Below are positions 2,475-62,887 of a DNA stretch of 64,000 nt, piece by piece. Below the pieces are notes generated by a model. The model was not told the origin of the DNA. It saw nothing but the letters and a program-made list of their open reading frames with translations, and searched no databases. Each line of letters begins with the position of its first letter. Within the stretch, counting starts at the first letter, position 1. The DNA comes from Escherichia phage TH12, in the sequence record MT446390.1. One strand, 5' to 3'. The translations under genes were made by a program, and so were the position numbers.

Positions 2475-2503
2475 GTTTACTTCTTCCCTAGATGTGTTAC
2501 TAT
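2475..2503 (+). promoter_or_regulatory. T4-type early promoter (-35 GTTTAC, -10 TACTAT)
   Basis: GTTTAC, 17-nt spacer, TACTAT. Confidence 0.5.
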
Positions 2504-2531
2504 GGTCCTATTAAAACATGAGGAGAATAGT

Positions 2532-2837
2532 ATGAGTCTTTATACTGAACTGAATAAAAAATCTGAAGAATCTGCTGAAACTATTTTTAAAAACGTGCAA
2601 AAGCGTATTTTAGAAAAGATGTATAACACTGCAGCTAAAGGTGAAAAATCTTGCCGGTTCCCGATGAGGTGTTCTTCTGATTTATGCGCAAATACTATTG
2701 AATGGCTGGAAAGTGAAGGTCTTACGGTAGAGAAAAACCCGGCGATTTCTATTGACAGCGAATCATATATTAGTATTTCTTGGGATAAACCACGTACGAA
2801 TGAAGGATACTACAAGTTGTTAAGTTGGAAAAATTAA
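2532..2837 (+). CDS. hypothetical protein (101 aa)
   Basis: ATG after GAGGAG RBS. Confidence 0.55.
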   Translation: MSLYTELNKKSEESAETIFKNVQKRILEKMYNTAAKGEKSCRFPMRCSSDLCANTIEWLESEGLTVEKNPAISIDSESYISISWDKPRTNEGYYKLLSWKN

Positions 2838-2846
2838 AAATAATGA

Positions 2847-2875
2847 TGTACAAACACCAAGGATGGTGATACTAT
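2847..2875 (+). promoter_or_regulatory. early promoter-like (GTACAA -35, TACTAT -10) with CACC/GGTG hairpin in spacer
   Basis: Motif match to neighbouring early promoters. Confidence 0.45.
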
Positions 2876-2905
2876 AGACTTATCAACTACAGAGGAGTAA
2901 ACAAA

Positions 2906-3070
2906 ATGACTACTTTAATTATTTGGTTCGATGAAAATGAAGAAACATACTGTGTGAATATTGGTGAAAGTCCAATGCCTGAATTTGAATCCTCAGATAA
3001 AAACTCTGTTGTATCTTGGGCTGAAGGTTATAAAGCCGCTAAAGGTGACGTTGAAATAATTTACATCTAA
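2906..3070 (+). CDS. small hypothetical protein (54 aa), absent from ORF track
   Basis: ATG 11 nt after AGAGGAG; fills promoter-to-gene gap. Confidence 0.45.
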   Translation: MTTLIIWFDENEETYCVNIGESPMPEFESSDKNSVVSWAEGYKAAKGDVEIIYI

Positions 3071-3117
3071 GTACGTTTATGTTATAGTAATCACATCAAA
3101 TCAAGAGGAGAAACAAA

Positions 3118-3372
3118 ATGGCTAAAGTTAGTATTGATGTCGTTGATTACGAATACACCGAAGAAGTTATTCGCAACCGTCACCCTGAAGTTCGTATCGA
3201 TTCAGCCCAAGATTCCAAGTTCTGGACAACTGAGCTTAATCTGAGTGGTCCTTATGAAGCTGTTAAGAAGTTCATGGTTGAAGAATACTGTGAAGGCATG
3301 CACCCCGAAGACGCCAAGTTTTATGTCAATTTGATTAAAAATAATTTACAAACTCTTGAGAGCAGAGTATAA
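3118..3372 (+). CDS. hypothetical protein (84 aa)
   Basis: ATG after AGAGGAG RBS. Confidence 0.55.
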   Translation: MAKVSIDVVDYEYTEEVIRNRHPEVRIDSAQDSKFWTTELNLSGPYEAVKKFMVEEYCEGMHPEDAKFYVNLIKNNLQTLESRV

Positions 3373-3392
3373 TGCTCTCATTGGATAATAAA
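3349..3392 (+). repeat. 44-bp repeat copy 1 (hairpin GAGAGCA..TGCTCTC with TATAAT in loop)
   Basis: Near-identical to 32461-32504, one mismatch. Confidence 0.8.
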
Positions 3393-3414
3393 CCACCAAT
3401 TGAAAGGTAATAAT

Positions 3415-4008
3415 ATGAACACACTGAAGAAACTTGTTGAATTCATCCGCACTAAACTGGGTACTGCTATGGCTAAAAATCTGACTGTCGAAGAACAGTA
3501 TAACGCAGCTGCAGATAAGTTGATTACCCAAATCAAAGAACTAAAAACGGCTTCTGTTAAATCTATTAATGAAGAAAAACGTATTCGCGAACTTGTTATT
3601 GAAAAGAATAAGCAAGCCGCTTCTAAGGAACGTGAAATTCGTAAGCTCCTGGCTGAAGGACAAGATGTTACCATGCATGCTAAGCTTGGTCTTCTGTATC
3701 GTCGAACTGCCGAACAACTTAATACAAAAGCTGACGGGTATGCCGCTATGCGAATTGAAATTGCTCGTAAGGTGGTTGAACTTGATGATGCTCGTCAGAA
3801 TCTGGCAATCAAACTCGAATACATTCGTGAAACTCGAGCAGCCAATGCCCTTGGTATCTCTACGGCTGATGATGTAATTGAAATCGCTGCACTGACTAAG
3901 GTTGATATCGAAGACACTCTGACTCGTGTTGAAACGTTCAATGGTACTCCAGCCGGTGTCGAAACCACTTCTGCTGATGTACAAGAATATATTAACTCTT
4001 TGAAATAA
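3415..4008 (+). CDS. coiled-coil protein (197 aa), possible PspA/IM30-like
   Basis: Heptad-rich, charged sequence; family call from recollection only. Confidence 0.5.
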
Positions 4009-4016
4009 AATAATAC

Positions 4017-4038
4017 GGAGGACTCCGGTCCTCCTTTT
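4017..4038 (+). terminator. hairpin terminator GGAGGAC-TCCG-GTCCTCC + TTTT
   Basis: Perfect 7-bp GC-rich stem then T-run. Confidence 0.6.
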
Positions 4039-5024: not shown

Positions 5025-5054
5025 GTTTACGCTTCTCAAATGATTAGTTATAAT
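5025..5054 (+). promoter_or_regulatory. early promoter (GTTTAC, 18 nt, TATAAT)
   Basis: Consensus-like -35 and -10. Confidence 0.55.
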
Positions 5055-5113
5055 GAACTCCTAGCTAAACGTGAAAATGAAACAATCGAAAACTTTATTA
5101 AGGAATGTAGAAA

Positions 5114-5419
5114 ATGAGTAAGATTATTGAAATTAAAGTACCAGAGTTTAATGATGCCAAATCCGCTTCAGATGCAATTTATAAACTTCTGAATCAAGCT
5201 GAACGTATCGAAGAAGAAGCAACAAAGATCGCAGACCAATATGCAGTATCATTTTCTGTAGGTGATTATGGTAGCGGCCGTACTTATTATCCTAAGGGTG
5301 AAATCGTATCCCAGTGGATGAAAGATGAAATTGAAAATAATGGTGGCGATGTTAAGCGTGAAGGTAATGGTTACGTTATTACTGAAGGTGCTTGGGTTTC
5401 GTCTTCTGCGTTGTGCTAA
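5114..5419 (+). CDS. small protein, paralog family member 1 (C-terminus GAWVSSSALC)
   Basis: ORF; shared C-terminal motif with the next two genes. Confidence 0.55.
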   Translation: MSKIIEIKVPEFNDAKSASDAIYKLLNQAERIEEEATKIADQYAVSFSVGDYGSGRTYYPKGEIVSQWMKDEIENNGGDVKREGNGYVITEGAWVSSSALC

Positions 5420-5912: not shown

Positions 5913-5942
5913 GTTTACAACAAGATAGGGCTATGTTATAGT
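5913..5942 (+). promoter_or_regulatory. early promoter with embedded stem-loop (GTTTAC ... TATAGT)
   Basis: Near-palindrome GATAGGGCTA / TAGTCCTATC around the -10. Confidence 0.5.
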
Positions 5943-5970
5943 AGTCCTATCAAATTAAATGGAGACAACA

Positions 5971-6210
5971 ATGGTTTATTACGAAAGTATAGGAACCGAA
6001 GTAGTTGCTAAAACTATTACTCGTGAAAAGTTTGCAAAGATATTCGATATGCGTTATAAAAAATCTGAACACAAAGGCATCCGATTCGAAGATGCGCACT
6101 GTACAATTTGCCCTTATAATGAAGACATAAACGGCACAATCGTTCCATTAGTAGAGGCTTCACATGACGACCTCTGGGATGAATATAATATCGCATGTCG
6201 CGAAATTTAA
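5971..6210 (+). CDS. hypothetical protein (79 aa)
   Basis: ATG after GGAGA. Confidence 0.5.
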   Translation: MVYYESIGTEVVAKTITREKFAKIFDMRYKKSEHKGIRFEDAHCTICPYNEDINGTIVPLVEASHDDLWDEYNIACREI

Positions 6211-7204: not shown

Positions 7205-7234
7205 GTTTACACAATTATAGGACTATGTTATAGT
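7205..7234 (+). promoter_or_regulatory. early promoter with palindrome ATAGGACTAT/TAGTCCTAT
   Basis: GTTTAC, 18 nt, TATAGT. Confidence 0.5.
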
Positions 7235-7262
7235 AGTCCTATTAAAACATGAGGAGAATATT

Positions 7263-7568
7263 ATGAAATTAGGCGAAACCAACCGAATTGGTCTTTTAAC
7301 TATATTTGTATCACTTTTTTACGTAGCTCTTTCTGTTGCAGTATTACAAAAGGCTTACGATATGGATGGTGTTCCTGGTTTTGTATTCTTATCACCATTT
7401 TTATTATTCGTCGGGGCTTTGTTATTATATGCCACGACTAGTTTTGACCATAACGTCTGGGTTAATTATAAATGTAAATTGTCTGAAGAAGAACACGCAG
7501 AAGCTCGTAAAAAAGCTATTGAATCTACCAATCTAGAAAATTTCATTAAAGAATGTCGAGGAAAATAA
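7263..7568 (+). CDS. small membrane protein (101 aa)
   Basis: GAGGAGAA RBS; two hydrophobic segments. Confidence 0.55.
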   Translation: MKLGETNRIGLLTIFVSLFYVALSVAVLQKAYDMDGVPGFVFLSPFLLFVGALLLYATTSFDHNVWVNYKCKLSEEEHAEARKKAIESTNLENFIKECRGK

Positions 7569-10230: not shown

Positions 10231-10260
10231 GTTTACTTCCTCCAAGGGTTTTGATACTAT
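10231..10260 (+). promoter_or_regulatory. early promoter (GTTTAC, 18 nt, TACTAT)
   Basis: Motif. Confidence 0.5.
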
Positions 10261-10287
10261 ACATTCATCAACTACTTGGAGGAAATT

Positions 10288-10701
10288 ATGACTCGTATCA
10301 ATTTAACACTTGTTTCTGAACTGACCGATCAACATCTTATGGCTGAGTATCGTGAATTACCACGCGTATTTAGTGCAGTCCGTAAACATGTCCAAAACGG
10401 TAAACGTGTAAAGGATTTTAAAATCTCTCCAACATTTATCTTAGGCACAGGTCACGTAACATTCTTTTACGACAAACTTGAATTTTTACGTTTACGACAA
10501 ATCGAGCTAATCGCTGAATGCTTGAAACGTGGTTTCAAAATCAAGGACACGACAGTCCAGGATATTTCCGACATCCCTGCCGAATTTCGTAATAATTATG
10601 TCCCGTCCGAAGCGTCCGTTGCGATAAGTCAAGCACGCTTAGATGAAAAAATTGCTCAACGTCCTACTTGGTACAAATACTATGGTAAATCAATTTACTA
10701 A
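10288..10701 (+). CDS. denV: endonuclease V (pyrimidine-dimer DNA glycosylase)
   Basis: [12 protein letters not shown]...TWYKYYGK, near-identical to T4 DenV. Confidence 0.95.
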
Positions 10702-10968: not shown

Positions 10969-10972
10969 ATTG

Positions 10973-11001
10973 TTTACGCTTAAGTATTAATATGGTATAA
11001 T
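10973..11001 (+). promoter_or_regulatory. early promoter (GTTTAC, 17 nt, TATAAT)
   Basis: Consensus match. Confidence 0.55.
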
Positions 11002-11032
11002 TACTCTATCAAAACAAACAAGGAAACAAAAA

Positions 11033-11335
11033 ATGAAAACATATCAAGAATTTATTACTGAAGCGCGAGTGAGTGCAGGTAAATTAGAAGCCGCTATAAA
11101 TAAAAAGGCCCATTCATTTCATGATTTGTCCGATAAAGACCGTAAGAAACTTGTAAGCCTTTATATTGACAAAGAGCGTATTCTCGCTCTTCCTGGCGCT
11201 AATGAAGGTAAACAGGCCAAGCCTTTGAATGCTGTCGAAAAGAAAATTGATAACTTTGCTTCTAAATTCGGTATGTCTATGGATGACCTTCAGCAAGCGG
11301 CTATCGAAGCAGCTAAAGTAATTAAAGGTAAATAA
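11033..11335 (+). CDS. internal protein (IPII/IPIII-like, 100 aa) with CTS MKTYQEFITEA
   Basis: N-terminal region matches my recollection of T4 internal proteins. Confidence 0.7.
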   Translation: MKTYQEFITEARVSAGKLEAAINKKAHSFHDLSDKDRKKLVSLYIDKERILALPGANEGKQAKPLNAVEKKIDNFASKFGMSMDDLQQAAIEAAKVIKGK

Positions 11336-11337
11336 CA

Positions 11338-11367
11338 GTTTACTTTCTCCTAGAATTGTGATAGTAT
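11338..11367 (+). promoter_or_regulatory. early promoter (GTTTAC ... TAGTAT)
   Basis: Motif. Confidence 0.45.
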
Positions 11368-11448
11368 ATTCATAATTACTTAGAGGGGTAAATACAGAAA
11401 TGGACAATTCATGCGCCACGGAATGGCCCAACCTAAAAGAGAAACTAA

Positions 11449-11988
11449 ATGAGAACATTTTTAACTGGTCCTTATCTATCCCTGATGAATGCTTTTACAC
11501 ACCATTCTGATGTTAGAGTAGAAGAAATTTGTAAGAACGGTTATGCCCCACCATTTGAAGACGTACTCAAGCAGTACTGTACACTTCGTTTAGACGGCGG
11601 CAGACAATCAGGTAAATCGACTGCAGTAACTAATTTTGCTGTTAATTGGCTGTATGACGGTGGAACAGTTATTGTTCTTTCTAATACTTCAGCCTATGCT
11701 AAAATTTCTGCTGGCAACATTAAAAAAGAATTTTCTCGTTATTCTAGCGATGATATTCGATTCCGTTTATTTACCGATTCTGTCCGTAGTTTTATTGGCA
11801 ATGAAGGTTCTAAATTCCGTGGATTAACGCTTTCTCGTATTCTGTACATAATTGACGAGCCTATTAAAGCTCCTGATATGGATAAGATTTACAATGTCCA
11901 TATTAAAACAGTCCAACACTGTTGCAAAAGCAAATATTGCATCGGCGGTAATGCTCGTCCTCAATTTTTTGTGATTGGAATGCAATGA
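11449..11988 (+). CDS. P-loop NTPase-like protein (179 aa)
   Basis: Walker A-like GGRQSGKST. Confidence 0.5.
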   Translation: MRTFLTGPYLSLMNAFTHHSDVRVEEICKNGYAPPFEDVLKQYCTLRLDGGRQSGKSTAVTNFAVNWLYDGGTVIVLSNTSAYAKISAGNIKKEFSRYSSDDIRFRLFTDSVRSFIGNEGSKFRGLTLSRILYIIDEPIKAPDMDKIYNVHIKTVQHCCKSKYCIGGNARPQFFVIGMQ

Positions 11989-13142: not shown

Positions 13143-13441
13143 TGGCTCAAATCCTATCAGGCTTTGGAACTCATTATGAAGCATCTAGACGCATAACTGA
13201 AAGCAATCCTTTTGGCCTTGTTCCGAAGCACAAGAAAATTCAAAGCCTTGATGACTTTGAGAACCGCCTATGGGCCCTCTTTAATGAGTACAAGGCATAT
13301 CTGAAAGAAGACGCTGACGATTGTCTTGAAGAAGATGAGATTGCGTATTACGAACAACGCCTTGAACAGCTCAAGAACTTCCATCAGGTTCGTGACGAAG
13401 TATCTAAAGCAGTTAAAAAGTTAATTCCTTTCAAAGAGTAG
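13142..13441 (+). CDS. hypothetical protein (99 aa)
   Basis: Stop/start overlap. Confidence 0.5.
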
Positions 13442-13469
13442 TTTACTTCTCCTCTAGTTGTGTTACTAT
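13441..13469 (+). promoter_or_regulatory. early promoter with inverted repeat CTCCTCTAGTTG/CAACTAGAGGAG bracketing the -10 and RBS
   Basis: GTTTAC, 17 nt, TACTAT; 12-bp inverted repeat. Confidence 0.5.
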
Positions 13470-13497
13470 AGACTTGTCAACTAGAGGAGAAATCAAA

Positions 13498-13956
13498 ATG
13501 ACTATCAATTCGGAAGTTTTTATCCGCCGTAATAAACTCCGTCGAATCTTTGAAACGGAGTTCCGCAAAATAAATGCCGGTATAAAAGATGCTGCAAAGT
13601 CTCTTGGACTACCAGGCTTTCATATCAAGTATTCTCAACATCTCTTAGATCGTGCCATCCAGAGAGAAATAGATGAGAATTACGTTTTTGAATTATTTCA
13701 TAAAGTAAAAAATCATGTTAAAGAAGTTGCAGAATTTTTATCAATGCCGGCACGTCCAGATGTTGATGAAGATTTTGTCGAAGGTGTCGAATATCGCCCA
13801 GGCCGTTTAGAAATAACTGATGGAAATCTTTGGTTAGGTCTTACAGTTTGTCGCGAAAATCCGGCATTCAAAATGAAGACTCTTCAATGTAGAATGGCTA
13901 TTATTAACAGTAAACGACTACCAGGAAAAGCTTCTAAAGCAGTGATTAAAATCTAG
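13498..13956 (+). CDS. regB: RegB site-specific endoribonuclease
   Basis: MTINSEVFIRRNKLRR...PGKASKAVIK matches T4 RegB. Confidence 0.9.
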   Translation: MTINSEVFIRRNKLRRIFETEFRKINAGIKDAAKSLGLPGFHIKYSQHLLDRAIQREIDENYVFELFHKVKNHVKEVAEFLSMPARPDVDEDFVEGVEYRPGRLEITDGNLWLGLTVCRENPAFKMKTLQCRMAIINSKRLPGKASKAVIKI

Positions 13957-16839: not shown

Positions 16840-16846
16840 TTTACTA

Positions 16847-47484: not shown

Positions 47485-48645
47485 ATGAATACTTTTAAAA
47501 TCGGAACGAATTTTGATTTAGCTCTTCTTGATAAAATCGTAGAGCTCAATAAAACCTATCCTAATAGCTTGATAAACGAAGTATATGGCTCTACAAGAGA
47601 AATGGCTTTTGTAGCAGCCAGACCTGATTTTAGGCTTCCTGACGTTGACAAAAAGATGTTAGAAGACTACGTTAAACGTTGTAACGAATTAGGTATTTGC
47701 TTTAACTATACACTCAACACGATAAATCCTGGTTCAAAAAGAGAACTAGTTGAGTGGAAGAAGAAAGCTATTCAGGATTATGTTCAGTATCTTTGGTCAA
47801 TAGGCGTATGGCGTATTACTATCGCTAACCCTGTTGTTATGGAAATTGTTCGTGAAGTCAATAAAGATATTGAGATTGAAGTTTCAACAATTCTACATGT
47901 CGATGCGGTAACTCAAATCAAATACTTACATGACCAATATAACATCAAAAAGGTCTGTTGCGGAATTCATAAGAACCGTTCAGTTTCTTTCCTGAAGCGT
48001 GCAGCAGAGTTTTGCAATAAGAACAATATAATATTTGAAGTTCTTGTAAATGAGTTCTGTTCTAATGCTGGTAAAGGGTATACAACACATTGTAGTTATC
48101 GTGACTCTTGCTATATTTTCCATAGTACTGATGTTACAGCTGATGATGCTAAATCCTTAAATGGATATCCAATGCAACACTGCATTAAAGCTCGTGATAC
48201 AGACCCATTTAACTGGTTGAGAACTCGTTTTGTTCGTCCTCAAGATTTGAAACTTTATAATGATATTGGTATCACTCAATTCAAAGTTTCAGGACGTACA
48301 GGTAGCACAGACTACATTTTGAAAGTTCTTGAAGCATACGCTTCTGAAAAGTTTGAAGGTAATTTGTTAGAACTGTGGAAGCCTTTAGAGACTATTTTCA
48401 CTCTTGAAAATGAGACTGAGTTTTCACATACAGTAAATATTGAAACCTCTTTGTTAGATGGCTTTTTAGAAAAAAGGTGGTTCAGACATCCAGATTTTGA
48501 TTGTGCTAATGAAATCTGTGGGTCAACGTGTACATATTGTGAAAGGTATTATAAACGTCAATTATCTAAAAACGGGTTAGCAGAAAACTCCATATCTATT
48601 ATTGATATAACTAACTCTGATGACGCTTTGAGGTACCCGGAATGA
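47485..48645 (+). CDS. Cys-rich putative Fe-S enzyme (386 aa); weak peptidase-U32-like features
   Basis: YTLNT motif, C-terminal CxxxCxxC; family call is tentative. Confidence 0.35.
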   Translation: MNTFKIGTNFDLALLDKIVELNKTYPNSLINEVYGSTREMAFVAARPDFRLPDVDKKMLEDYVKRCNELGICFNYTLNTINPGSKRELVEWKKKAIQDYVQYLWSIGVWRITIANPVVMEIVREVNKDIEIEVSTILHVDAVTQIKYLHDQYNIKKVCCGIHKNRSVSFLKRAAEFCNKNNIIFEVLVNEFCSNAGKGYTTHCSYRDSCYIFHSTDVTADDAKSLNGYPMQHCIKARDTDPFNWLRTRFVRPQDLKLYNDIGITQFKVSGRTGSTDYILKVLEAYASEKFEGNLLELWKPLETIFTLENETEFSHTVNIETSLLDGFLEKRWFRHPDFDCANEICGSTCTYCERYYKRQLSKNGLAENSISIIDITNSDDALRYPE

Positions 48646-48881
48646 TTTCTAGAAAAAGTTTTAATTATAAACTTAACGAAGAGATTTTGACTATGAAACT
48701 GAACACTAACGAACAAATTCTTAAAAAGGCCCTTATGGGCCTGTTTGAAACCAAAGCGGCTAAAGTGATTAAAGAACCTGTTCAATTGGAATACTACACT
48801 GATGCATTCCTTCATAGTGTTCTTGGAAGTATAGATTCTGAAGCTTTACGTTATATCAACATTGTCAAGAAATTCAAATAA
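48642..48881 (+). CDS. hypothetical protein (79 aa)
   Basis: ATGA overlap. Confidence 0.45.
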   Translation: MISRKSFNYKLNEEILTMKLNTNEQILKKALMGLFETKAAKVIKEPVQLEYYTDAFLHSVLGSIDSEALRYINIVKKFK

Positions 48882-48923
48882 GCTTTATGAATTGAGTATA
48901 TAATAAATTGTATTGAGGTAAAT

Positions 48924-49640
48924 ATGGGAAAACATAACACAATGAAATATATCAAAGCCGCAGATTTTCAAACCGCATTTAAAGCAGTCAATCGTGAAAT
49001 TTTAGAAAACCCCGAATTCGTAACTGATTCTCGTATTGGACGTTGTAATGAAATTGGGTCTATGACAGTAGTTGTTGACACTCCATCATCATTCAAAATG
49101 ACCGACCCACGTATTAACCGCATCTCTTATGAATATGCCGAAGACTTCTGGAAGTTTATGATTTCTGGTGGTACCAACGCAGAAGAAGCGTTTAAGGCAT
49201 ATCCTAATGTCGCTAAATTTATTTCTAAACCAAAATCAGATGTTTTGCCGGCGAACTTCAACACTTTCTATGGTCCTCGCATTGCGGCCCAATTACCAAC
49301 TCTTCTAAAAGAACTTAAAGAAAAACCTAACTCTCGAAGAGTTGTGTTCCAAATTCTAGAAAGTTCTGATCAGGCTTTGCTTGATTCGGACGAAACACTT
49401 GAATATCCATGTACTGACTCAGTAACTTATTATATTCGTGATGGTAAGCTTTATACCCACTGTCATATGCGTTCTCAGAACTGTGCTGTTGTTATGCAGT
49501 TGGATTTTTATCTCCAAGGAAAATTACTTCATTATATCGCTAACGAATGTGGTGTAGAAGTTGGTGATTATACTCATACCATGGTAAGTGCCCATGTGTT
49601 TGAACGTGATTTTGATTATGTTAAAGGATTCCTTGACTAA
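48924..49640 (+). CDS. 42: thymidylate-synthase-fold pyrimidine hydroxymethylase (dCMP hydroxymethylase, gp42 position), divergent
   Basis: NSRR, YPCTD, MRSQN..D motifs; position between 43 and uvsX. Confidence 0.6.
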   Translation: MGKHNTMKYIKAADFQTAFKAVNREILENPEFVTDSRIGRCNEIGSMTVVVDTPSSFKMTDPRINRISYEYAEDFWKFMISGGTNAEEAFKAYPNVAKFISKPKSDVLPANFNTFYGPRIAAQLPTLLKELKEKPNSRRVVFQILESSDQALLDSDETLEYPCTDSVTYYIRDGKLYTHCHMRSQNCAVVMQLDFYLQGKLLHYIANECGVEVGDYTHTMVSAHVFERDFDYVKGFLD

Positions 49641-50539
49641 TGGCTATTTTCCGCGTACCAATCTTGAGTATGCGGTCTTATGAAACTGGACAGTATGCTA
49701 TCCTTAAGGATGGCAACTTCCAACTTCATTTGCACCGTGCTAATCCGGGTGATGTGATTACATATCCACGTAATGCATCTGATATTAAAGAATGCGAACG
49801 TCTTTTCCCAGAATTTAAGTTTGTTCCATTATGGTATAAAGATAACGCGTATAACACTCGTAAATATTTCTGGACTGAAAATGAATTTGTGGTTGATTCA
49901 TTAATTGATTATTATGATTGTGATTTTCTAATCACAGATATCACTGGTTATGGCGGCGCTTTTGATGTGGAATTCAATTTCAATATCACTGCAGACCCTA
50001 ATAAACCACGTTTTTATATTGATGAATTCTTAAAAACCGACATGTTGTCTGTTAATCGTTCACTTCAAACTACTGTGTTGAATGAACGTCAAAAAGGAGT
50101 GCTGGTTAACGCAGGTGCAGATGGTAATAAGATTATCGTAACGCAGAAAGTTATACGTCCTTCCATCATGCAGCGTCTTGTAGGTGATTTGGCTCCTATT
50201 CATCTAGATGGTATTTTTCATCCATTTCGAATTAGTGACCCATGTTATCGTTTTGAACAAGTGGTTGAATGTGCAATTCAATTAGGTCAACCGCTTTATA
50301 TAACCGATCCAAATAATAGCTTCGACAGAAATAAGTATCCTGAAGAAGCGCTGATTCGAATTTTTAAACCAACTAAAACTGAGTACTATCAAATTCTTAA
50401 AGGACGTCCGAAAATTCAATATTTCGAAAATCCTGAAGAAGTATTCCATCCAGGTCTTGGTGAGTTCATCTACTTTAATGCTTTAATTTCTTCGCCGTAT
50501 AATATACCTAAATACGAAGATGTCGTAATCGAGGAATAA
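49640..50539 (+). CDS. hypothetical protein (299 aa) at the T4 beta-gt position; candidate DNA glycosyltransferase
   Basis: Position only; no resemblance to T4 beta-gt. Confidence 0.35.
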   Translation: MAIFRVPILSMRSYETGQYAILKDGNFQLHLHRANPGDVITYPRNASDIKECERLFPEFKFVPLWYKDNAYNTRKYFWTENEFVVDSLIDYYDCDFLITDITGYGGAFDVEFNFNITADPNKPRFYIDEFLKTDMLSVNRSLQTTVLNERQKGVLVNAGADGNKIIVTQKVIRPSIMQRLVGDLAPIHLDGIFHPFRISDPCYRFEQVVECAIQLGQPLYITDPNNSFDRNKYPEEALIRIFKPTKTEYYQILKGRPKIQYFENPEEVFHPGLGEFIYFNALISSPYNIPKYEDVVIEE

Positions 50540-50540
50540 A

Positions 50541-51089
50541 ATGGCTAAAATTATTTTAGTAGACGGCCCAGATAATGCTGGTAAAACAACTTTCATTAAT
50601 GACATAATGGAAATTAGTGAAAGATATGTAAAGATTGATTTCCCTAAACGAACAGTTGATGGACGTTTCGATGTTAAGTCTCGAAATGAAGTTGGTTGTT
50701 TCGAAACGATGTTGAATTATTTAGACCCTACTAAGATTTATCTGTTAGACCGTGGATATATTAGTAACTGGGTTTATGGACGTATTCGACAAGATGCGGA
50801 CTCGGTTCTTGACGTTTATGAACAGGACTATGTTCGTCTTTGCCAAAACCATGATGTGTTCACAATTATTTTAACACGTAACGAAATGACTGAAAGTTTT
50901 GAAGACGACCTTATTACTTTGTCTTCATTCGGTTTTAATACAGTCGTTTCACATTTTGAAGAGTTTGCAATTCATAACAAAATCCAAACATATCAATTAC
51001 TTAATCATGATGGTGCTAACAAAGTTATAGGATTTAATGCAAGCGAACGTAATTGTTTGATTACAGAAATCATCAAATGGGCTCGTTAA
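50541..51089 (+). CDS. P-loop kinase-like protein (182 aa)
   Basis: Walker A DGPDNAGKTT at N-terminus. Confidence 0.5.
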   Translation: MAKIILVDGPDNAGKTTFINDIMEISERYVKIDFPKRTVDGRFDVKSRNEVGCFETMLNYLDPTKIYLLDRGYISNWVYGRIRQDADSVLDVYEQDYVRLCQNHDVFTIILTRNEMTESFEDDLITLSSFGFNTVVSHFEEFAIHNKIQTYQLLNHDGANKVIGFNASERNCLITEIIKWAR

Positions 51090-54152: not shown

Positions 54153-54171
54153 GGAGACTTCGGTCTCCTTT
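54153..54171 (+). terminator. UUCG-tetraloop hairpin
   Basis: GGAGAC-TTCG-GTCTCC + TTT. Confidence 0.5.
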
Positions 54172-54234
54172 CGGGGTTTACATCTTCCTCTAGGCATGAT
54201 ATGATGAACTTACACCAACCAAGAGGAAAACATT

Positions 54235-54609
54235 ATGAATATGTCTCAAGCAATTTTTACTGCAATCACAGAAAACACAACTGTTGAAGTAGTTTCTCCA
54301 CTGGCAACCTACGTTATTCTTGCCCCTAAAACTATTGTATCTCGTATGGAAAACATGGGCAAACGTATCGTACAAATTGTCGGAGCCGGAAATCAAAAAC
54401 TTGATTATCTGCGAACCATCAAAGCTTATGAACATTTCCAACTCGAAAAAGGTTCTCCTATCCGGGTAGAACTCGTAAATGGTGATATCGTTCGAGCAAT
54501 GTTCCATCATTTCTATGCATTGAATGACCCATCTAAAGCGGTTCGTTTAATTGCATACGACGCAAACCAAAACGAAATCAACGCAGATATATCTAAATTA
54601 CGTTTTTAA
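54235..54609 (+). CDS. hypothetical protein (124 aa)
   Basis: AGAGGAAAA RBS. Confidence 0.5.
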   Translation: MNMSQAIFTAITENTTVEVVSPLATYVILAPKTIVSRMENMGKRIVQIVGAGNQKLDYLRTIKAYEHFQLEKGSPIRVELVNGDIVRAMFHHFYALNDPSKAVRLIAYDANQNEINADISKLRF

Positions 54610-54638
54610 GTTTACTTCTCCGGTAGTTGTGTTATTAT
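54610..54638 (+). promoter_or_regulatory. early promoter with inverted repeat CTCCGGTAGTTG/CAACTACTGGAG
   Basis: GTTTAC, 17 nt, TATTAT. Confidence 0.55.
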
Positions 54639-54664
54639 AGACCTATCAACTACTGGAGAACAAA

Positions 54665-54982
54665 ATGAAAACCATCGATTGTAAAGCAGAATTTAAGATT
54701 TTTTATCACGGTTCAAGTAGTTCAGCTAACATCGAAAACATGCTTTGTCCTCCTGAAGAAACAGGAGTTCTGTCTGAAACTGGACGTAAGAAAAACTTGG
54801 ATCGTGTATTCTTTACTGAAGATATCGGTTTAGCAAAGATTTATGCAGGACGAGCAGCACGCTCTTATGGAGGTGAACCACGTCTCTATCGAGTAATTTC
54901 TCCGGTAGACGTAGTTCAAATGAATAATACTAAAGGTGCTACAGTTTATCACGCTGAATGGGCCTTCTGTGAGGAAATATGA
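54665..54982 (+). CDS. hypothetical protein (105 aa)
   Basis: ORF. Confidence 0.5.
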   Translation: MKTIDCKAEFKIFYHGSSSSANIENMLCPPEETGVLSETGRKKNLDRVFFTEDIGLAKIYAGRAARSYGGEPRLYRVISPVDVVQMNNTKGATVYHAEWAFCEEI

Positions 54983-55386: not shown

Positions 55387-55416
55387 GTTTACAAGCACTA
55401 CATAATGTGTTACTAT
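55387..55416 (+). promoter_or_regulatory. early promoter (GTTTAC, 18 nt, TACTAT)
   Basis: Motif. Confidence 0.5.
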
Positions 55417-55444
55417 CTTTCTATCAACTACAGAGGAAATTGAA

Positions 55445-55813
55445 ATGAAAAAATTAATCACTTTAGCAATGGTATTTGGATTAACCGGATGTGGTGCCCA
55501 TGGCTTTATCCCTAATAATGTTGGCCAATTGATTTATAACCCGAATGTTAAACAGTACAACCAACCTAAAGTTGAAGTGGAAGACCCGGTTACTGTAGGT
55601 AATCGAATGATTCAAGCTGATGCCCATGCTCAACGTTATCGTGATTCTGATACTGTAGCATTGTCAAAAGAACAACGCGTTAAAGAACATTGTCTACAGG
55701 CTACTGAAATCGCATTCATTCGCTATGTTGAAACAACTGGTAAAGAGCCTTCCCAGAAACAAATCGCGAATAACTACGTCCAGTGTATTGAACGTTTAAA
55801 CAAATTTAATTAA
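55445..55813 (+). CDS. predicted lipoprotein (122 aa; lipobox LTGC)
   Basis: Signal peptide ending in lipobox Cys. Confidence 0.55.
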   Translation: MKKLITLAMVFGLTGCGAHGFIPNNVGQLIYNPNVKQYNQPKVEVEDPVTVGNRMIQADAHAQRYRDSDTVALSKEQRVKEHCLQATEIAFIRYVETTGKEPSQKQIANNYVQCIERLNKFN

Positions 55814-55874
55814 TTGGTTTACGCCAAAGTTAAAACAAGATACTATAAACATAACAAATCAAGAGGAAATTAAC

Positions 55875-56123
55875 ATGGAATTATTCGTAGCTAGTTCAGT
55901 AGCAGTTTTAATCGCAGGTATTGGTTCAATCATCATTTACATGTTGCCTTGGGTAATCGCACTTATTCGTGGCACAAAAAGCACAACAGCAATCTTCTTT
56001 GTATCTTTACTCTTTAACTGGACGATGATTGGTTGGATTGGAACTTTAATTTGGTCTATCGTTGCCGAAAAGAAATCTGCTCAGCAGCCTCAACAAGTAA
56101 TTATTATTCGCGAAAAAGAATAA
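55875..56123 (+). CDS. two-helix inner-membrane protein (82 aa); Imm-like size and topology
   Basis: Two hydrophobic helices. Confidence 0.45.
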   Translation: MELFVASSVAVLIAGIGSIIIYMLPWVIALIRGTKSTTAIFFVSLLFNWTMIGWIGTLIWSIVAEKKSAQQPQQVIIIREKE

Positions 56124-56127: not shown

Positions 56128-56158
56128 GTTTACATTATAGATGGACTATGGTATAGTA
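56128..56158 (+). promoter_or_regulatory. early promoter with palindrome
   Basis: GTTTAC ... TATAGT. Confidence 0.45.
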
Positions 56159-56186
56159 GTCCTATCAAATCAACTAAGGAGTTAAA

Positions 56187-56480
56187 ATGAAAAAGTTATC
56201 ATTGGCAGCAATCTTACTCGCAGTATCATGTGCACCAGCTCCAGTTACAGCAGGTTATGATAAAGACCTCTGTGAGTGGTCAATGACTGCAAATCAAGAA
56301 GATGTTGAACAACAAATCTTCTCTGATATCGTGAACATCACTAAACGAGACCGTCCTAATATGGTTAATAAAGTTGTTGAACAACTTAAGTCTGGCGGTA
56401 TCATGCAGTACAACTATGTTTTGTATTGTGACCCTAATTTCGATAACAAAGATATCGTAACCGAAATCACAGGTGAGTAA
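56187..56480 (+). CDS. sp: periplasmic Spackle-like protein (97 aa)
   Basis: Signal peptide then GYDKDLCEWSMTA, matching my recollection of T4 Sp. Confidence 0.6.
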   Translation: MKKLSLAAILLAVSCAPAPVTAGYDKDLCEWSMTANQEDVEQQIFSDIVNITKRDRPNMVNKVVEQLKSGGIMQYNYVLYCDPNFDNKDIVTEITGE

Positions 56481-57857: not shown

Positions 57858-58880
57858 ATGGCTGAATGGATAGATAATGAATTTGCTTATCGTGCGTTTT
57901 CTCACCTCCCTCGTTTTAGACAAATCAATAATTCAAGCACATTTAAATTAACATTTCGTTGTCCAGTTTGTGGCGACTCTCAGACAGATGCAATGAAAGC
58001 CCGCGGATGGTATTATGGCGGTACTCCAGGTAATGTGCATTGCTATAACTGTCAATATCATAATACAATTTCTGGATACTTAAAAGAGTACGATGAAGAG
58101 CTTTATCGCGAGTATCTAATGGAAGTTCGTAAAGAAAAAGCTAGAATGGAACCAAAGATTGAAAAGGTTCCTGAAGCTAAGCCGGAGCCAGAGAAAAAGA
58201 CTATAAATTCTTTGCCGTCTTGTTCTCGTCTGGACAAGTTGCCTGAAGAGCATCCTATTGTGAAATATGTTAAGTCTCGGTGTATTCCTAAAGAATCATG
58301 GAACAGATTATGGTTCACATTAGAATGGCCCAAATTGGTCAACAAGATTCAACCTGGTACGTATAAGAAAGAGATTCCTGAACCGCGTTTAGTGATTCCT
58401 ATTTTTAATAAAGATGGGAAGGCCGAGTCATTCCAAGGACGTGCACTTCGTAAAGATGCTCCTCAGAAATATATCACTATTAAAGCGTTTGAGTCTGCAA
58501 CAAAAATTTATGGTGTTGAACGTGTTAAGGAAGGAGACGTCTGGGTAATGGAAGGTCCTATTGATAGTTTATTCATACCCAATGCAATCGCTATTACAGG
58601 CGGCTCAATAGATTTAGATGTGGTACCATTTAAAGAACGTCGGGTATGGGTAATGGATAATGAACCTAGGCATCCAGATACTATAGCTCGTATGAAGCGA
58701 TTAGTTGATGCAGGCGAACGTGTCATGTTCTGGGACCGAGCTCCATGGAGATCAAAGGATGTGAATGATATGGTAATGAAAGAAAATGCAACACCACAAG
58801 AAATTTTAGAATATATGAAACAGAATATTTCAAGTGGGTTGCATGCTAAAATGAGATTATCTCGTTATTCGAAGATTTAA
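57858..58880 (+). CDS. 61: DNA primase gp61
   Basis: WIDNEFAYRAFSHLPRF ... zinc ribbon CPVCGDS / CYNC; matches T4 gp61. Confidence 0.95.
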   Translation: MAEWIDNEFAYRAFSHLPRFRQINNSSTFKLTFRCPVCGDSQTDAMKARGWYYGGTPGNVHCYNCQYHNTISGYLKEYDEELYREYLMEVRKEKARMEPKIEKVPEAKPEPEKKTINSLPSCSRLDKLPEEHPIVKYVKSRCIPKESWNRLWFTLEWPKLVNKIQPGTYKKEIPEPRLVIPIFNKDGKAESFQGRALRKDAPQKYITIKAFESATKIYGVERVKEGDVWVMEGPIDSLFIPNAIAITGGSIDLDVVPFKERRVWVMDNEPRHPDTIARMKRLVDAGERVMFWDRAPWRSKDVNDMVMKENATPQEILEYMKQNISSGLHAKMRLSRYSKI

Positions 58881-59074
58881 ACAAGCCCTATAATAGCAAA
58901 GGCCAAATCAACTACAGTATCCAATGGAACAGAAGGAACTATAATACCATTAGCAACTAACAATGGTGCAATCCCGAAGTTCCATGAAATAATGCCACCT
59001 ACAACTATTGCAGCGATAGCAGTTTTCTTTTTATTGCCTTTAATAGCGTTGATTAACGATGGAAGTTTAAACAT
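58877..59074 (-). CDS. small hydrophobic membrane protein (65 aa) on the opposite strand
   Basis: AAGGAG 5 nt upstream of ATG on minus strand; sits in an otherwise empty gap. Confidence 0.5.
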   Translation of the reverse strand: MFKLPSLINAIKGNKKKTAIAAIVVGGIISWNFGIAPLLVANGIIVPSVPLDTVVDLAFAIIGLV

Positions 59075-59967: not shown

Positions 59968-59976
59968 ATAATTTAA

Positions 59977-60001
59977 GGAATCCTTCGGGATTCCTTTTTT
60001 C
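59977..60001 (+). terminator. UUCG-tetraloop terminator
   Basis: GGAATCC-TTCG-GGATTCC + TTTTTT. Confidence 0.65.
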
Positions 60002-60010: not shown

Positions 60011-60040
60011 GTTTACAACCACTAAAAACTGTGTTAAGAT
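60011..60040 (+). promoter_or_regulatory. early promoter (GTTTAC, 18 nt, TAAGAT)
   Basis: Motif. Confidence 0.45.
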
Positions 60041-60068
60041 ATTCTTACTTACTCAAGAGGAGAACAAT

Positions 60069-60296
60069 ATGTTAAATCGTTGGATTAAACCTAATAACAC
60101 ATTAGGTGCTTTGATTGCTCAAGAAGTTTCGTTGAAATACGGTCTTGGATATTACGATGATGTAGTCGTACACTCATTCATGATGGATGGTGAAGACGTC
60201 AAATTTAATGCCGAAATCCGTTGGGATGATGGTGGTGTTCGTTTTGTTCGAGGAACAATTAATGCTTACGATGCTGAAGAAGTTTTTTGCTGTTAA
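60069..60296 (+). CDS. hypothetical protein (75 aa)
   Basis: AGAGGAGAA RBS. Confidence 0.5.
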   Translation: MLNRWIKPNNTLGALIAQEVSLKYGLGYYDDVVVHSFMMDGEDVKFNAEIRWDDGGVRFVRGTINAYDAEEVFCC

Positions 60297-60674: not shown

Positions 60675-61138
60675 TGGATGCTATGCTATTTAAAATGTAT
60701 TTGCTTGAAGCCAAGTCATTTAAACATATACCGGTGGAAGATAAGACTCCACTAGAAATAGCTATTCTCATTAACAAAAGTCTAAATAATCCGCAATATA
60801 TCGTAGAAGAATTCTGTAAATTGCAGATTCCTAAAGGTTACAAAATTCGTGTAGAGCGAGTTGGAGCTATTACTCGTTCTAAAAATTCTCCGTTTAGTCT
60901 TGAAGAAGGCATAAAGGACTTAGGTTATGAATCTACGGAAAATGCAGTTTATGTGAATCCTGAAAAGCGTTTAGACTTGTTTGAAAAGCGAGACCATAAG
61001 TATTTTGCCAAAAAATACTTTATTACATCATTAGCAGATTTAGTCCATTTGCAACGAGCTATTTGGAAATTTTTTAAGACAAAAGGTGTAGCACTAGAAA
61101 CATTCTCTGAACCAGCTAGTTTTTATCTAGGTGAATAA
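60674..61138 (+). CDS. hypothetical protein (154 aa); position of T4 mrh
   Basis: Position only. Confidence 0.45.
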   Translation: MDAMLFKMYLLEAKSFKHIPVEDKTPLEIAILINKSLNNPQYIVEEFCKLQIPKGYKIRVERVGAITRSKNSPFSLEEGIKDLGYESTENAVYVNPEKRLDLFEKRDHKYFAKKYFITSLADLVHLQRAIWKFFKTKGVALETFSEPASFYLGE

Positions 61139-61139
61139 T

Positions 61140-61319
61140 ATGGACCTTATGAGTATGTTTGACGAGCCTGAAGTTGAGGCTCCTAAAGTGCATCGTAGTG
61201 AACTTGTTGATGAACTAGATAGTATTATACAACGACACGGCTTTAGTTTACCTGTTGAAGCCCTGAAAGACCTTGCATCTTATTATGACGACCCTCCACC
61301 ATGGAGTCCTTGGAAATGA
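61140..61319 (+). CDS. hypothetical acidic protein (59 aa)
   Basis: ORF. Confidence 0.4.
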   Translation: MDLMSMFDEPEVEAPKVHRSELVDELDSIIQRHGFSLPVEALKDLASYYDDPPPWSPWK

Positions 61320-61480
61320 AAGAGAAATTTAAAGAGAAATTCTTACTAGAAATCAAGGAAAAAGACTTTGAGACATGGTACCGAATGGTGAAAGGGTTGA
61401 CATTGCTTTTTAAAGCATCCTTATTCATGTTAGAACAACCCGGTCCTGATGGTCCTTTAGTAGGAAAGCTTAAAAAGTAG
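61316..61480 (+). CDS. small hypothetical protein (54 aa), absent from track
   Basis: ATGA overlap with upstream stop. Confidence 0.35.
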   Translation: MKEKFKEKFLLEIKEKDFETWYRMVKGLTLLFKASLFMLEQPGPDGPLVGKLKK

Positions 61481-61509
61481 TTTACATTCCCTCCTCTCGT
61501 GTTATGATA
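61480..61509 (+). promoter_or_regulatory. early promoter (GTTTAC, 18 nt, TATGAT)
   Basis: Motif. Confidence 0.45.
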
Positions 61510-61535
61510 GGCTTATCTTTAAATGGAGGTCTATC

Positions 61536-62117
61536 ATGACATGTCAATCTGAACTTCAAGAACGCGAATACCTAACAAATCTGATTGATAGCAAATTCAC
61601 CCGCCAAGAACAAAACATTCTCTGGGCTTGCACTGATTCTAAGGAAGACCCAGATTTCCACTATGAATTAGACCATCTTGTCCGTAAGCATATGACTTCT
61701 ACAGTACCAGTAGAACTCTACCGTGGTGTAACTCCAGAAGAAGTAGAACGTCTTTCCCTTCTTTCTGTTGGATGCCATTGGTCTCCTGGACGCGCGACAT
61801 CATTCACAACTGATTTCAGTACAGCTCGTCAATTCTCTGGGAGATGGGAATATCAAACGTACACTATTCTTAGTCTTCGAAATGCTCCATTCATTTTTGA
61901 TTACTACCAAAACATGGTTAACATTATACTCGCTGGAAAGAATCCTAAGCATGTTATGGAAGAAACGCGTGTTGACGTCCTAGATATGATTGAATCTGAA
62001 CAAGAATACATGGTCTCAGGTATCTCTAGATTTGAGATTGTGGAAATTGAAGACTTAGAATATGACCCTTTATCTCGGTTATACAAAATCATTCATTTGA
62101 AAATGTTGAATTTTTAG
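61536..62117 (+). CDS. modB: ADP-ribosyltransferase (ModB-like by position)
   Basis: R-S-E type ART motifs (YRG ... TTDFSTA); tandem paralog of next gene. Confidence 0.55.
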   Translation: MTCQSELQEREYLTNLIDSKFTRQEQNILWACTDSKEDPDFHYELDHLVRKHMTSTVPVELYRGVTPEEVERLSLLSVGCHWSPGRATSFTTDFSTARQFSGRWEYQTYTILSLRNAPFIFDYYQNMVNIILAGKNPKHVMEETRVDVLDMIESEQEYMVSGISRFEIVEIEDLEYDPLSRLYKIIHLKMLNF

Positions 62118-62146
62118 TGTACAAACTCTTCCGATGATGATATTAT
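62118..62146 (+). promoter_or_regulatory. early promoter (GTGTAC, 17 nt, TATTAT)
   Basis: Motif. Confidence 0.45.
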
Positions 62147-62174
62147 ACTTTTATCAACCACAGGAGAAACCTAA

Positions 62175-62783
62175 ATGTTTATGCCGTATAACGAGTGTGA
62201 AATTGAAGAAATGGTTCGTCGTGCTCAAAACCCCGAATATCAAGATGTATTGCAGTACGAAATTGATAGTCAATTCAGCGACATTGAACAAAGTGTACTG
62301 TGGCAGTGTATGGAAAACAAGCCAGATAGCATCCAACAGGAGTTAAGTTCAATCGTTCGTAGAAATTGGACGTCTTCTGTTCCTGAGACAATGTATCGTG
62401 GAATCTCTAAGAAAACTATGGCCACACTTGATGATAAAGGCATTGGTAGTATTATTAAATTTGACAGAGTAATGAGCTTCAGCCCAGTGTTCGGTGTAGC
62501 ACGTAACTTTGCTTCGTATAATTTTTACGGAACATTTAATATGTTCTGCATCAAAGATGCACCATTTGCTTTCAACTTCCGTGAACATATGCTTAATATG
62601 ATTCTGGCTGCGCCATCTTGCGAGTTCAATGGAGCTTTCCCTGAAGCAACAAGACGGTCTAATGCTAGACTTATATCTGACGAATGCGAATTTATGCTCC
62701 CTATAGGGACTACACTGCGTGTAGATTCTATTATTCAAGATGGACGTTATACAATCTGGAATCTGTCTATTGTCAGTTACTGA
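62175..62783 (+). CDS. modA: ADP-ribosyltransferase (ModA-like by position)
   Basis: YRG ... SFSPVFGVARNF; paralog of 61536. Confidence 0.55.
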   Translation: MFMPYNECEIEEMVRRAQNPEYQDVLQYEIDSQFSDIEQSVLWQCMENKPDSIQQELSSIVRRNWTSSVPETMYRGISKKTMATLDDKGIGSIIKFDRVMSFSPVFGVARNFASYNFYGTFNMFCIKDAPFAFNFREHMLNMILAAPSCEFNGAFPEATRRSNARLISDECEFMLPIGTTLRVDSIIQDGRYTIWNLSIVSY

Positions 62784-62858
62784 CTGAATTAGAATAACCG
62801 GATGGAACTCAGAACCATTATAACACATAAAAAATTAAAGCATTTTATGAAAAAAAGA

Positions 62859-62887
62859 GTGTACACTACCTGAGGGCATGATATTAT
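62859..62887 (+). promoter_or_regulatory. early promoter (GTGTAC, 17 nt, TATTAT)
   Basis: Motif. Confidence 0.45.

Follow-up and report, generated by a model that had tools for sequence, protein, structure and literature searches.

The closest described relatives of the elements reported here are known from T4-type phages. Early promoters of T4 and RB69 share a consensus (Liebig & Rueger; Wilkens & Rueger), and 57 of them have been predicted in RB69, with 58 given in the supplementary list with coordinates (Nolan et al., 2006, PMC1524935). Promoter-early stem-loop (PeSL) cassettes have been described in T4-like phages (Arbiol 2010, PMC2839356; Comeau 2014, PMC4122927), and AT-rich 'PeSL-like' elements at the internal-protein (IP) loci of T-even phages are attributed to Repoila 1994. 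In the T4 genes e, soc, 49, and I-TevI, a promoter lies inside a hairpin that masks the ribosome-binding site, and only RNA initiated upstream folds and is silenced (Uzan & Miller 2010, PMC3014915). RegB cuts early mRNAs at the GGAG of their ribosome-binding sites, and secondary structure inhibits this cleavage. Here we describe a set of promoter-plus-leader cassettes in a 64-kb stretch of DNA from Escherichia phage TH12 (sequence record MT446390.1), which is referred to as the window. The explanation that fits them best, and that we hold with good confidence as a whole, combines early-promoter cassettes, a counterpart of the PeSL elements, recombination between cassettes, and hairpins in read-through RNA.

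The window is about 96–97% identical to the Escherichia phages LF82-1 and Mizar and to phiC120, the last of which belongs to Mosigvirus, the genus that makes up the RB69 group of T4-type phages. By sequence similarity, it is the early-gene arm of such a Mosigvirus coliphage, RB69-like and of the T4 type. It spans the long early and middle gene arm, in the order tRNAs, e, denV, regB, tk, nrdC.x, 49, nrdD/G, 55, 47/46, 45, 44/62, regA, 43, uvsX, 41, imm, sp, 61, 56, soc, modB, modA, and srd. The motif GTTTAC-N16-19-TANNNT has 26 matches in the window against 4.06 expected, a count reached by none of 100 shuffles, and 24 of the 26 lie on the + strand. A position-weight scan trained on the sites returns 26–29 hits on the + strand and none on the − strand, with 0.1–0.8 expected in Markov-shuffled sequence. 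A scan for generic sigma-70 promoters (TTGACA/TATAAT) finds no enrichment over shuffled sequence (65 vs 65.6 and 50 vs 49.3); hence, the enrichment signal is that of the T4-specific motif. Relaxing the scan, with the RB69 list as a guide, brought in further sites whose −35 element is ATGTAC or ATTTAC; 3344 and 22839 were recovered in this way. The curated set consists of 27 intergenic cassettes at 2475–62887, each named here after its first position, plus two weak intragenic sites. An earlier note, made by a model from the letters of this stretch, had claimed more than twenty intergenic sites on one template, and the 27 cassettes bear this out; four of them with a degenerate −35 (2846, 3059, 3344, and 22839) were absent from its list. 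All 27 cassettes are located at gene junctions and are co-oriented ahead of + strand genes. They lie at 2.4–31.1 kb or 54.1–62.9 kb, and none is found in the replication-gene block at 32–54 kb.

Each cassette is about 60 bases long, and its promoter, leader, and ribosome-binding site fill the whole gene junction, with the stop codon of the upstream gene adjoining or overlapping the −35. The −35 is GTTTAC or a close variant preceded by an A-rich UP region (consensus ..ataaa..a GTTTAC ... TaTGt TAt.AT). The spacer of 17 or 18 nucleotides (nt) ends in TGT or TGA, constituting an extended −10, and the −10 itself is TAnnnT; the TG before the −10 is flagged at most sites by the promoter scan. The 12 nt after the −10 follow a conserved leader, AGNCCTATCAAC, the start region reads CC-T-ATCAAC, and either GGAG or GAGG forms the ribosome-binding site. 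A distance of 26–31 nt, typically about 28, separates the end of the −10 from the ATG in 22 of the 27 cassettes. GGAG, the RegB target motif, is present in the ribosome-binding site of 16 of 25 cassette genes vs 11 of 107 other genes. The earlier note had also held that several sites share one leader. This stands for the looser consensus given above and fails for the 23-nt leader TATAGACCTATCAACTACTGGAG, which is present in two sites only (allowing up to 3 mismatches), at 21224 and 54636, within a 33-nt identical tract. We considered the shared leader as a long repeat family and rejected this, since the 23-mer has two copies and the longest tract shared by any pair of cassettes is 33 nt.

We then compared the cassettes with published promoters. 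Of 25 cassettes checked, 24 are displaced from a published RB69 'Pe' site by the same +14 offset; the sole one without an RB69 counterpart, 11338, is in a segment that RB69 lacks. T4 early promoters are laid out alike, down to the CTATCAACTAC leader and the spacing of about 28 nt ahead of the ATG. The genes downstream of cassettes include regB, denV, imm, sp, modA, modB, and srd, which are orthologs of T4 early genes. At the sequence level, all features of a T4-type early promoter are found, namely the −35, spacer, and −10, the TGn and UP region, and early-gene position and orthology. The cassettes are therefore very probably sigma-70-dependent early promoters of an RB69-like T4-type phage, built as compact, semi-homologous promoter cassettes. 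We infer their promoter activity and start sites from these features; a literature search for start-site and terminator maps of T4 and RB69 found none, and likewise no transcript data for this phage. The promoter set is already described for the type species of the genus (RB69, 2006).

Folding of each cassette from the −35 to the ATG shows that part of the set carries an inverted repeat. Among 14 cassettes with shuffle controls, six have a clearly non-random hairpin (z scores of −3.2 to −6.1), about four more are moderate (z about −1.6 to −1.9), and the other four fold no better than shuffled sequence. The 13 cassettes folded without shuffle controls have weak predicted structures only. An inverted repeat is thus present in roughly 10 of the 27 cassettes (about 40%), and the remainder are promoter-only. 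The earlier statement that many sites carry an inverted repeat at the −10 therefore applies to roughly ten cassettes, six of them strong, and does not extend to the rest; the two repeats that it quoted, at 7217 and 54617, do exist (7217–7226/7233–7242 and 54616–54629/54647–54660).

The stems fall into two classes. Class A is a 10–13-bp hairpin enclosing the −10, with its 5′ arm in the spacer and its 3′ arm running from the end of the −10 to about +8. Its members are 17334 (17334–17394; 13-bp hairpin 17343–17355/17362–17374, −20.9 kcal/mol, z −6.1), 5913 (5913–5973; hairpin 5924–5934/5941–5951, −16.0 kcal/mol, z −3.9, with the −10 in the loop and 3′ arm), and 7205 (7205–7265; z −3.2). Two weaker members are the cassette of nrdC.8 (21198–21256; stem 21205–21215/21222–21232, z −1.7), which shares its 33 identical nt with 54610, and that of sp, or spackle (56128–56189; stem 56140–56149/56156–56166 with one bulge, z −1.9). 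Cassette 3344 (3344–3417; −35 ATTTAC), which precedes an e.6 homolog and was compared with the sequence of RB69 Pe:72069, belongs to class A by inspection, its −10 being enclosed by TGAGAGC (3357–3363) and GCTCTCA (3374–3380).

In class B, a CTCC-containing 5′ arm begins 1–2 nt past the −35, the 3′ arm terminates with GGAGAA, the ribosome-binding site, and the resulting 10–14-bp helix brackets the −10 and the start site. The cassette of regB (13441–13500) has a 14-bp stem, 13447–13460/13478–13491, that includes GGAG (−21.6 kcal/mol, z −5.1). The 14-bp stem of 54610 (54610–54667), located ahead of the gene at 54665, likewise includes GGAG (−21.0 kcal/mol, z −5.1). In the cassette of denV (10231–10290), a spacer arm at 10237–10250 pairs with a Shine–Dalgarno arm at 10270–10284 (−19.1 kcal/mol, z −4.1). 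Moderate members are the cassette of gp55.6 (31037–31096; TCCTCGATAG / CTATAGAGGA, z −1.9) and 54176 (54176–54237; 7 bp, z −1.6), which precedes the variable gene 54235–54609. In two mosaic cassettes the class B stem is degraded. Cassette 2475 (2475–2534; GTTTAC, 17-nt spacer, TACTAT), preceding an RB69ORF146c homolog, has a CTCC-type spacer of the class B kind and a leader identical over 25 nt to that of 7205. The cassette of the mobD.2a homolog (16885–16943) has a 5′ part that matches the one ahead of regB, joined to class A sequence at the −10 and start region, and its stem is broken (z −0.5).

Comparison across T4-like phages indicates that the pairing of both stem classes is selected, because the arms covary. 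Native 5′ and 3′ halves fold better than chimeras assembled from different sites (permutation p<1e-4). For regB and denV, the orthologous cassettes of T4 and of IMG/VR contigs carry stems of differing sequence at the same position. The regB variants include CTCTAGTTG/CAACTAGAG, CTCTTGACTG/CAGTTAAGAG, CTCTTTATG/CATAAAGAG, and TGTAAG/CTTACA, and those of denV include CAAG/CTTG, TGTAG/CTACA, GTTTG/CAAAC, and TGTGG/CACA. An IMG/VR sample selected only on the pattern GTTTAC..CTCC..TANNNT..GGAGA gave 74 non-identical cassette-like hits. In 41 of these the CTCC:GGAG core is extended by at least five contiguous pairs, with 18 different 5-mers, compared with 4.4 for permuted partners (maximum 14 in 5000 permutations) and with 0 among 15 hits lacking a following ATG. 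We also assembled 145 non-redundant cassettes from all fetched loci, part of which were retrieved by the CTCC/GGAGA pattern, a procedure that inflates the frequency of class B and leaves flank complementarity unaffected. Stems of at least 7 bp are found in 23 of the 145 for class A vs 4.1 for permuted partners (maximum 10), and in 43 of the 145 for class B vs 15.2 (maximum 24). In a two-arm alignment anchored solely on CTCC and GGAG, 68.5% of cells pair in register vs 43–47% when one arm is slid by ±1–3 positions. The covariation score is 0.291 in register vs 0.06–0.15 at the slides, and none of 500 column shuffles reaches it.

The position of the arms suggests how the stems could work. Within a cassette the parts follow one another as upstream stop codon, A-rich UP region, −35 GTTTAC, spacer, TGn and −10, start region, GGAG, and ATG. 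Because the spacer holds the 5′ arm, which thus precedes the start site, a hairpin is possible only in read-through RNA coming from an upstream promoter; RNA started at the cassette's own promoter would lack the 5′ arm and could not form the helix. In class B, that is, at regB, denV, and the gene at 54665, the ribosome-binding site would consequently be buried in read-through RNA and open in own-promoter RNA. The read-through RNA would be untranslatable for that gene and, since RegB is blocked by secondary structure, the helix would also shield it from RegB. Partition-function folding agrees with this arrangement. For the ribosome-binding site, the predicted median probability of being unpaired falls from 0.51 in the own transcript to 0.24 when RNA reads through (Wilcoxon p=0.0005), and at five sites it is 0.00 in read-through RNA. 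The drop at cassettes exceeds that of 67 genes without a cassette (p=0.015). Masking of the ribosome-binding site is tentatively put forward as the most likely role of class B. It is also conceivable, and here we are more guarded, that the class B pairing is an RNA switch, conserved and covarying among T-even-type phages (T4 regB and denV being instances), that acts post-transcriptionally and not as a terminator. Such a switch would tie the translation of some immediate-early genes strictly to initiation at their own promoters, leaving read-through RNA silent and RegB-resistant.

The window was aligned to LF82-1, Mizar, PTE-Eco05, and phiC120, which yielded 35 distinct indel or replacement events. 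For the edge test a cassette was taken as the 30 nt before the −35 through the ATG, amounting to 4.0% of the window. At least one edge falls within a cassette in 15 of the 35 events vs 2.4 expected (p<5e-5), and in five both edges do. Under a null restricted to gene junctions the count is 18 vs 9.5 expected (p=0.0015), and within the variable arms only it is 18 of 33 vs 11.7 (p=0.017). The coincidence of gene-content breakpoints with cassettes, proposed as a check in the earlier note, is thus seen against these four relatives. Single events show how precise it can be. Mizar carries an extra module of 261 bp, consisting of a cassette and a 65-codon open reading frame (ORF), inserted exactly at the −35 of 7205, and 250 extra bp ending exactly at the −35 of 5025. 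PTE-Eco05, phiC120, and RB69 have an extra ORF and cassette at 19746–19781, and the window's cassette 19727 is a hybrid of the two cassettes that flank the ORF in those phages, joined within the shared core TGTTATTATAGACCTATC (19746–19781). The gene 22895–23854, between cassettes 22839 and 23859 (which share 24 identical nt), is missing from PTE-Eco05. LF82-1 and Mizar lack the gene 54235–54609, which lies between 54176 and 54610. Around a 594-bp insertion in LF82-1 and PTE-Eco05, the terminator hairpin at 16846–16874 is duplicated, with a copy on either side. Identical tracts common to cassettes measure 15–33 nt, and some cassettes, such as 2475 and 16885, are mosaic. As cassettes share identical tracts, recombination between them would shuffle modules, adding, removing, or swapping promoter-plus-ORF units. 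The cassettes probably do have a role in recombination.

Several observations weigh against the combined explanation or narrow its reach. Promoter use and start sites are predicted from homology with T4 and RB69. A significant stem is lacking in about 17 of the 27 cassettes, and the class A hairpins are away from the ribosome-binding site, so masking cannot explain class A. A cassette of about 60 nt leaves the spacer and a short leader alone for the arms; with so little free space, the overlap of the 3′ arm with the ribosome-binding site could be forced. The stem is also dispensable: in LF82-1 and Mizar, where the location of 54610 has a single cassette, the same 3′ arm is retained but the spacer is not complementary to it. 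Non-Watson–Crick oppositions in the stems number 9 G.T/T.G vs 9 A.C/C.A (2 vs 1 in the first sample). The wobble-pair asymmetry test, which compares RNA with DNA pairing, therefore gives no transcribed-strand signature, and it is either uninformative or mildly against selection at the RNA level only. Concerning recombination, the link to breakpoints is about 1.5–2-fold once edges are limited to gene junctions, the indel events are not fully independent, and 17 of the 35 have no cassette at the junction nearest either edge. These include homing-endonuclease-type insertions unrelated to cassettes, in Mizar between the tRNAs (977–1053) and in PTE-Eco05 between nrdD and nrdG (29500–29522).

Other functions of the stems have to be set against masking. 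They could be transcription attenuators or terminators that limit polymerase arriving from upstream, each gene being driven mainly by its own promoter, which is the role put forward for the PeSL stems of RB49 and phi1. One PeSL stem-loop in RB49 and phi1 cut downstream lacZ as much as a strong terminator, and the hairpins of the window sit right past the upstream stop codon and covary. However, no T run follows any class A or class B stem, the tails are A-rich, the terminator scan flags none of them, and the GC-rich hairpin with a U tract that marks an intrinsic terminator is found in neither class. The true hairpin-plus-T-run elements are separate and lie upstream of few −35s, at 16846, 59975, and, weakly, 54153; these three are the only terminator-like structures associated with cassettes. 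Furthermore, the cassette stems are AT-rich, unlike the polyG/polyC stems of RB49. The missing T runs led us to reject termination as the chief explanation for stems of class A and class B; attenuation is unlikely. A function in RNA stability, by which the hairpins would protect the 3′ end of the upstream cistron or shield internal GGAG sites from RegB, has the merit of accommodating both classes. It agrees with the position of the hairpins directly 3′ of upstream stop codons, with the enrichment of GGAG in cassette genes (16/25 vs 11/107), and with the cleavage by RegB of GGAG in early ribosome-binding sites and its inhibition by secondary structure. Such protection at the RNA level would, however, leave the exact anchoring of the class B arms on the ribosome-binding site unexplained. 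It is compatible with masking rather than exclusive of it; as the explanation of the stems we give it only a slim chance.

The inverted repeats might instead act in DNA, as hairpins or cruciforms that recombination or repair enzymes recognise and that thereby become hotspots. The parity of G.T and A.C oppositions is what would be expected if both strands pair, indel edges do fall within cassettes, and Mosig 1998 tied T4 deletions to short inverted motifs. Nevertheless, the class B loops of about 20–25 nt disfavour cruciform extrusion, the joins at 19746–19781 and at 22839/23859 lie in shared direct homology of the −10 and start-region core and not in stems, and stemless cassettes (5025, 55387, and 19727) carry breakpoints too. 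The anchoring of class B on the ribosome-binding site is again left unexplained, and we consider this possibility quite improbable. Finally, the stems might be a functionless by-product of a partly palindromic promoter consensus spread by gene conversion. The cassettes are indeed mosaics with long identical tracts, the consensus spacer (T/A)TCTCC..TAGTTGTGT is complementary to the consensus leader CAACTA..GGAGA, many sites have no stem, and a stem can be lost. Yet the complementarity is site-specific, with at least 18 arm sequences having a matching partner, far above permuted partners or slid registers, and the orthologous regB and denV stems differ between genera and still pair. The covariation disfavours a by-product, which we regard as highly improbable.

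The remaining cassettes, which like all elements catalogued here are on the + strand, are mostly stemless or differ in the −35 or leader. Cassette 2846 (2846–2908) has the degenerate −35 ATGTAC and the leader AGACTTATCAACTACAGAGGAG and corresponds to RB69 Pe:72567; 3059 (3059–3120; ATTTAC) precedes an frd.3 homolog and corresponds to Pe:72354; and 5025 (5025–5116), with a 59-nt leader, corresponds to Pe:70143. Cassette 10972 (10972–11035) precedes an internal-protein gene, has no significant stem, and is in an IP locus that is replaced in relatives. Cassette 11338 (11338–11451), with an 81-nt leader, resembles the T4 promoter at 66498 (GAATTGTGA TAGTAT ATTCA.AATT). The cassette of nrdC.10 (19727–19797) has GTGTAC. 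That of nrdC.5/6 (22839–22897; ATGTAC), compared with the sequence of RB69 Pe:52042, has a core, AACCAAGGATGGTTGGAGTATAAT, identical to that of the nrdC.3 cassette (23859–23919), which contains a small hairpin within its spacer (AACCA..TGGTT). The cassette of imm.1 (55387–55447) has no significant stem and forms the right edge of two indel events, and those of imm (55817–55877; z +0.8) and mrh.2 (60011–60071; z +0.7) have no stem. In the cassette of modB (61480–61538), the CCCTCCTC-rich spacer pairs weakly with GGAGG. GTGTAC is also the −35 of the modA (62117–62177) and srd (62859–62940) cassettes, the latter with a 50-nt leader. The two weak, promoter-like intragenic sites are at 26538–26567, the ortholog of RB69 Pe:48639, and at 31739–31768, with a sequence matching Pe:43242.

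Next to cassettes, a terminator-type hairpin at 16846–16874 (AGCCCC..GGGGCT, then a T run) lies just upstream of 16885. A hairpin at 54153–54175 (GGAGAC TTCG GTCTCC, then TTT) follows gene 41 directly upstream of 54176, and a terminator-like hairpin at 59975–59996 (AAGGAATCC TTCG GGATTCCTT, then TTTTT) follows soc upstream of 60011. These three are directly upstream of a cassette −35; a fourth GC-rich hairpin with a T run is on the + strand at 4017–4034. Among Rfam families, only two tRNAs match the window and none covers the cassettes; the genes for tRNA-Met (CAT, 902–976) and tRNA-Arg (TCT, 980–1056) are the only matches by both Rfam and ARAGORN. The + strand holds all genes of the window but one. 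The sole − strand gene (58877–59074, 65 aa), equivalent to RB69ORF029w and with one predicted transmembrane segment, converges on the primase gene 61, with a 4-nt overlap at the 3′ end of the latter. In the interval from gene 43 to uvsX, at 44538–51089, annotation of relatives gives an arabinose-5-phosphate isomerase, a nucleotidyltransferase, a phosphoheptose isomerase, a U32 peptidase, a thymidylate-synthase-like protein, and a thymidylate kinase; in T4 the corresponding place is taken by genes 42 and beta-gt. This cluster looks like the RB69-type set of sugar and DNA-modification genes. PhiC120 lacks 438 bp (61554–61993) inside the modB homolog (61536–62117), and its annotation retains a 135-nt remnant ORF, which suggests that modB is deleted or decayed in that phage.

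The main result is confirmatory, in that known RB69-type early promoters behave like the PeSL cassettes proposed for modular gene shuffling. Prediction of the RB69 promoters goes back to 2006, and the idea of the cassette to 1994–2014; nothing here is categorically new. What is added is the demonstration in an RB69-type genome, with clean examples of single promoter-plus-ORF modules gained or lost exactly at cassette cores, the quantitative covariation of both stem classes, and the anchoring of one class on the ribosome-binding site, which may already be described for T4 (Repoila 1994, Miller 2003). As far as we checked, Mosigvirus has not been described in PeSL terms before. If masking by class B holds true, it would account for the way in which strong promoters in tandem, within densely packed early regions, escape a cumulative over-expression of toxic genes such as regB, and it would offer a compact, 'insulated' expression cassette for phage engineering.

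As regards the early promoters of T4 and RB69, the cassettes have the same GTTTAC −35, 17–18-nt spacer, TGn-extended −10, A-rich UP region, and C's just before the start. The published descriptions differ in treating promoters only, and Nolan et al. (2006, PMC1524935) mention no stem-loops or hairpins; neither the covarying arms nor the constant spacing of about 28 nt between −10 and ATG belongs to the published promoter definition. The likeness to PeSL elements that the earlier note had drawn is upheld by composition, location in the variable arms, and the link to indels, and it is supported that the cassettes are the T-even counterpart of these elements. Both combine an AT-rich upstream region, an early promoter, a stem-loop, a ribosome-binding site, and a start codon in one intergenic unit, and both are concentrated in variable gene arms, flanking single small ORFs, where indels between close relatives coincide with them. 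In phi1, as here, the stem lies between the −35 and −10 or overlaps the −10. In contrast to RB49, the cassette stems are AT-rich and lack polyG/polyC tracts and U tracts. In PST and T4 the stems are upstream of the promoter (Comeau 2014, PMC4122927), whereas here they are mostly inside or around it, with class B reaching the ribosome-binding site. Terminator activity and the formation of mini-circles by recombination between neighbouring elements belong to the published PeSL description. The present cassettes resemble the AT-rich elements of the T-even IP loci attributed to Repoila 1994 more than the GC-rich RB49 type. A different, tighter terminator–promoter composite precedes denV in four phage contigs of about 350 kb (L041, L043, L048, and L049; locus position about 540–600), where GGGTTGACTTCGGTCAGCCC, TTTTT, and GCTATAAT form a terminator hairpin with the −35 TTGAC in its stem.

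Class B has its nearest parallel in the hairpins of e, soc, 49, and I-TevI. As in those genes, the ribosome-binding site is part of the 3′ arm, in a helix that is strong in 10231, 13441, and 54610 and moderate in 31037 and 54176, and the promoter with its putative start site lies between the arms; the class B helix is kept by compensatory change. The difference is that the internal promoter of those genes is late (gp55-dependent), turning an early-off state into late-on, whereas that of the cassettes is an early sigma-70 promoter. By analogy, class B may work like the e/soc/49/I-TevI switches, and it is placed outside that set because its internal promoter is early, not late. Upstream of denV in five T4-like contigs (L028, L030, and L038–L040), the arm opposing the ribosome-binding site is downstream of the −10 (GTCYTCC ... 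GGAGGAC by the ATG); there, unlike in class B, the ribosome-binding site would be masked in the own transcript. Should class B indeed be a switch that silences read-through RNA, the paradigm of e, soc, 49, and I-TevI would extend to sigma-70 early promoters, and stems of the PeSL type would gain a post-transcriptional function.

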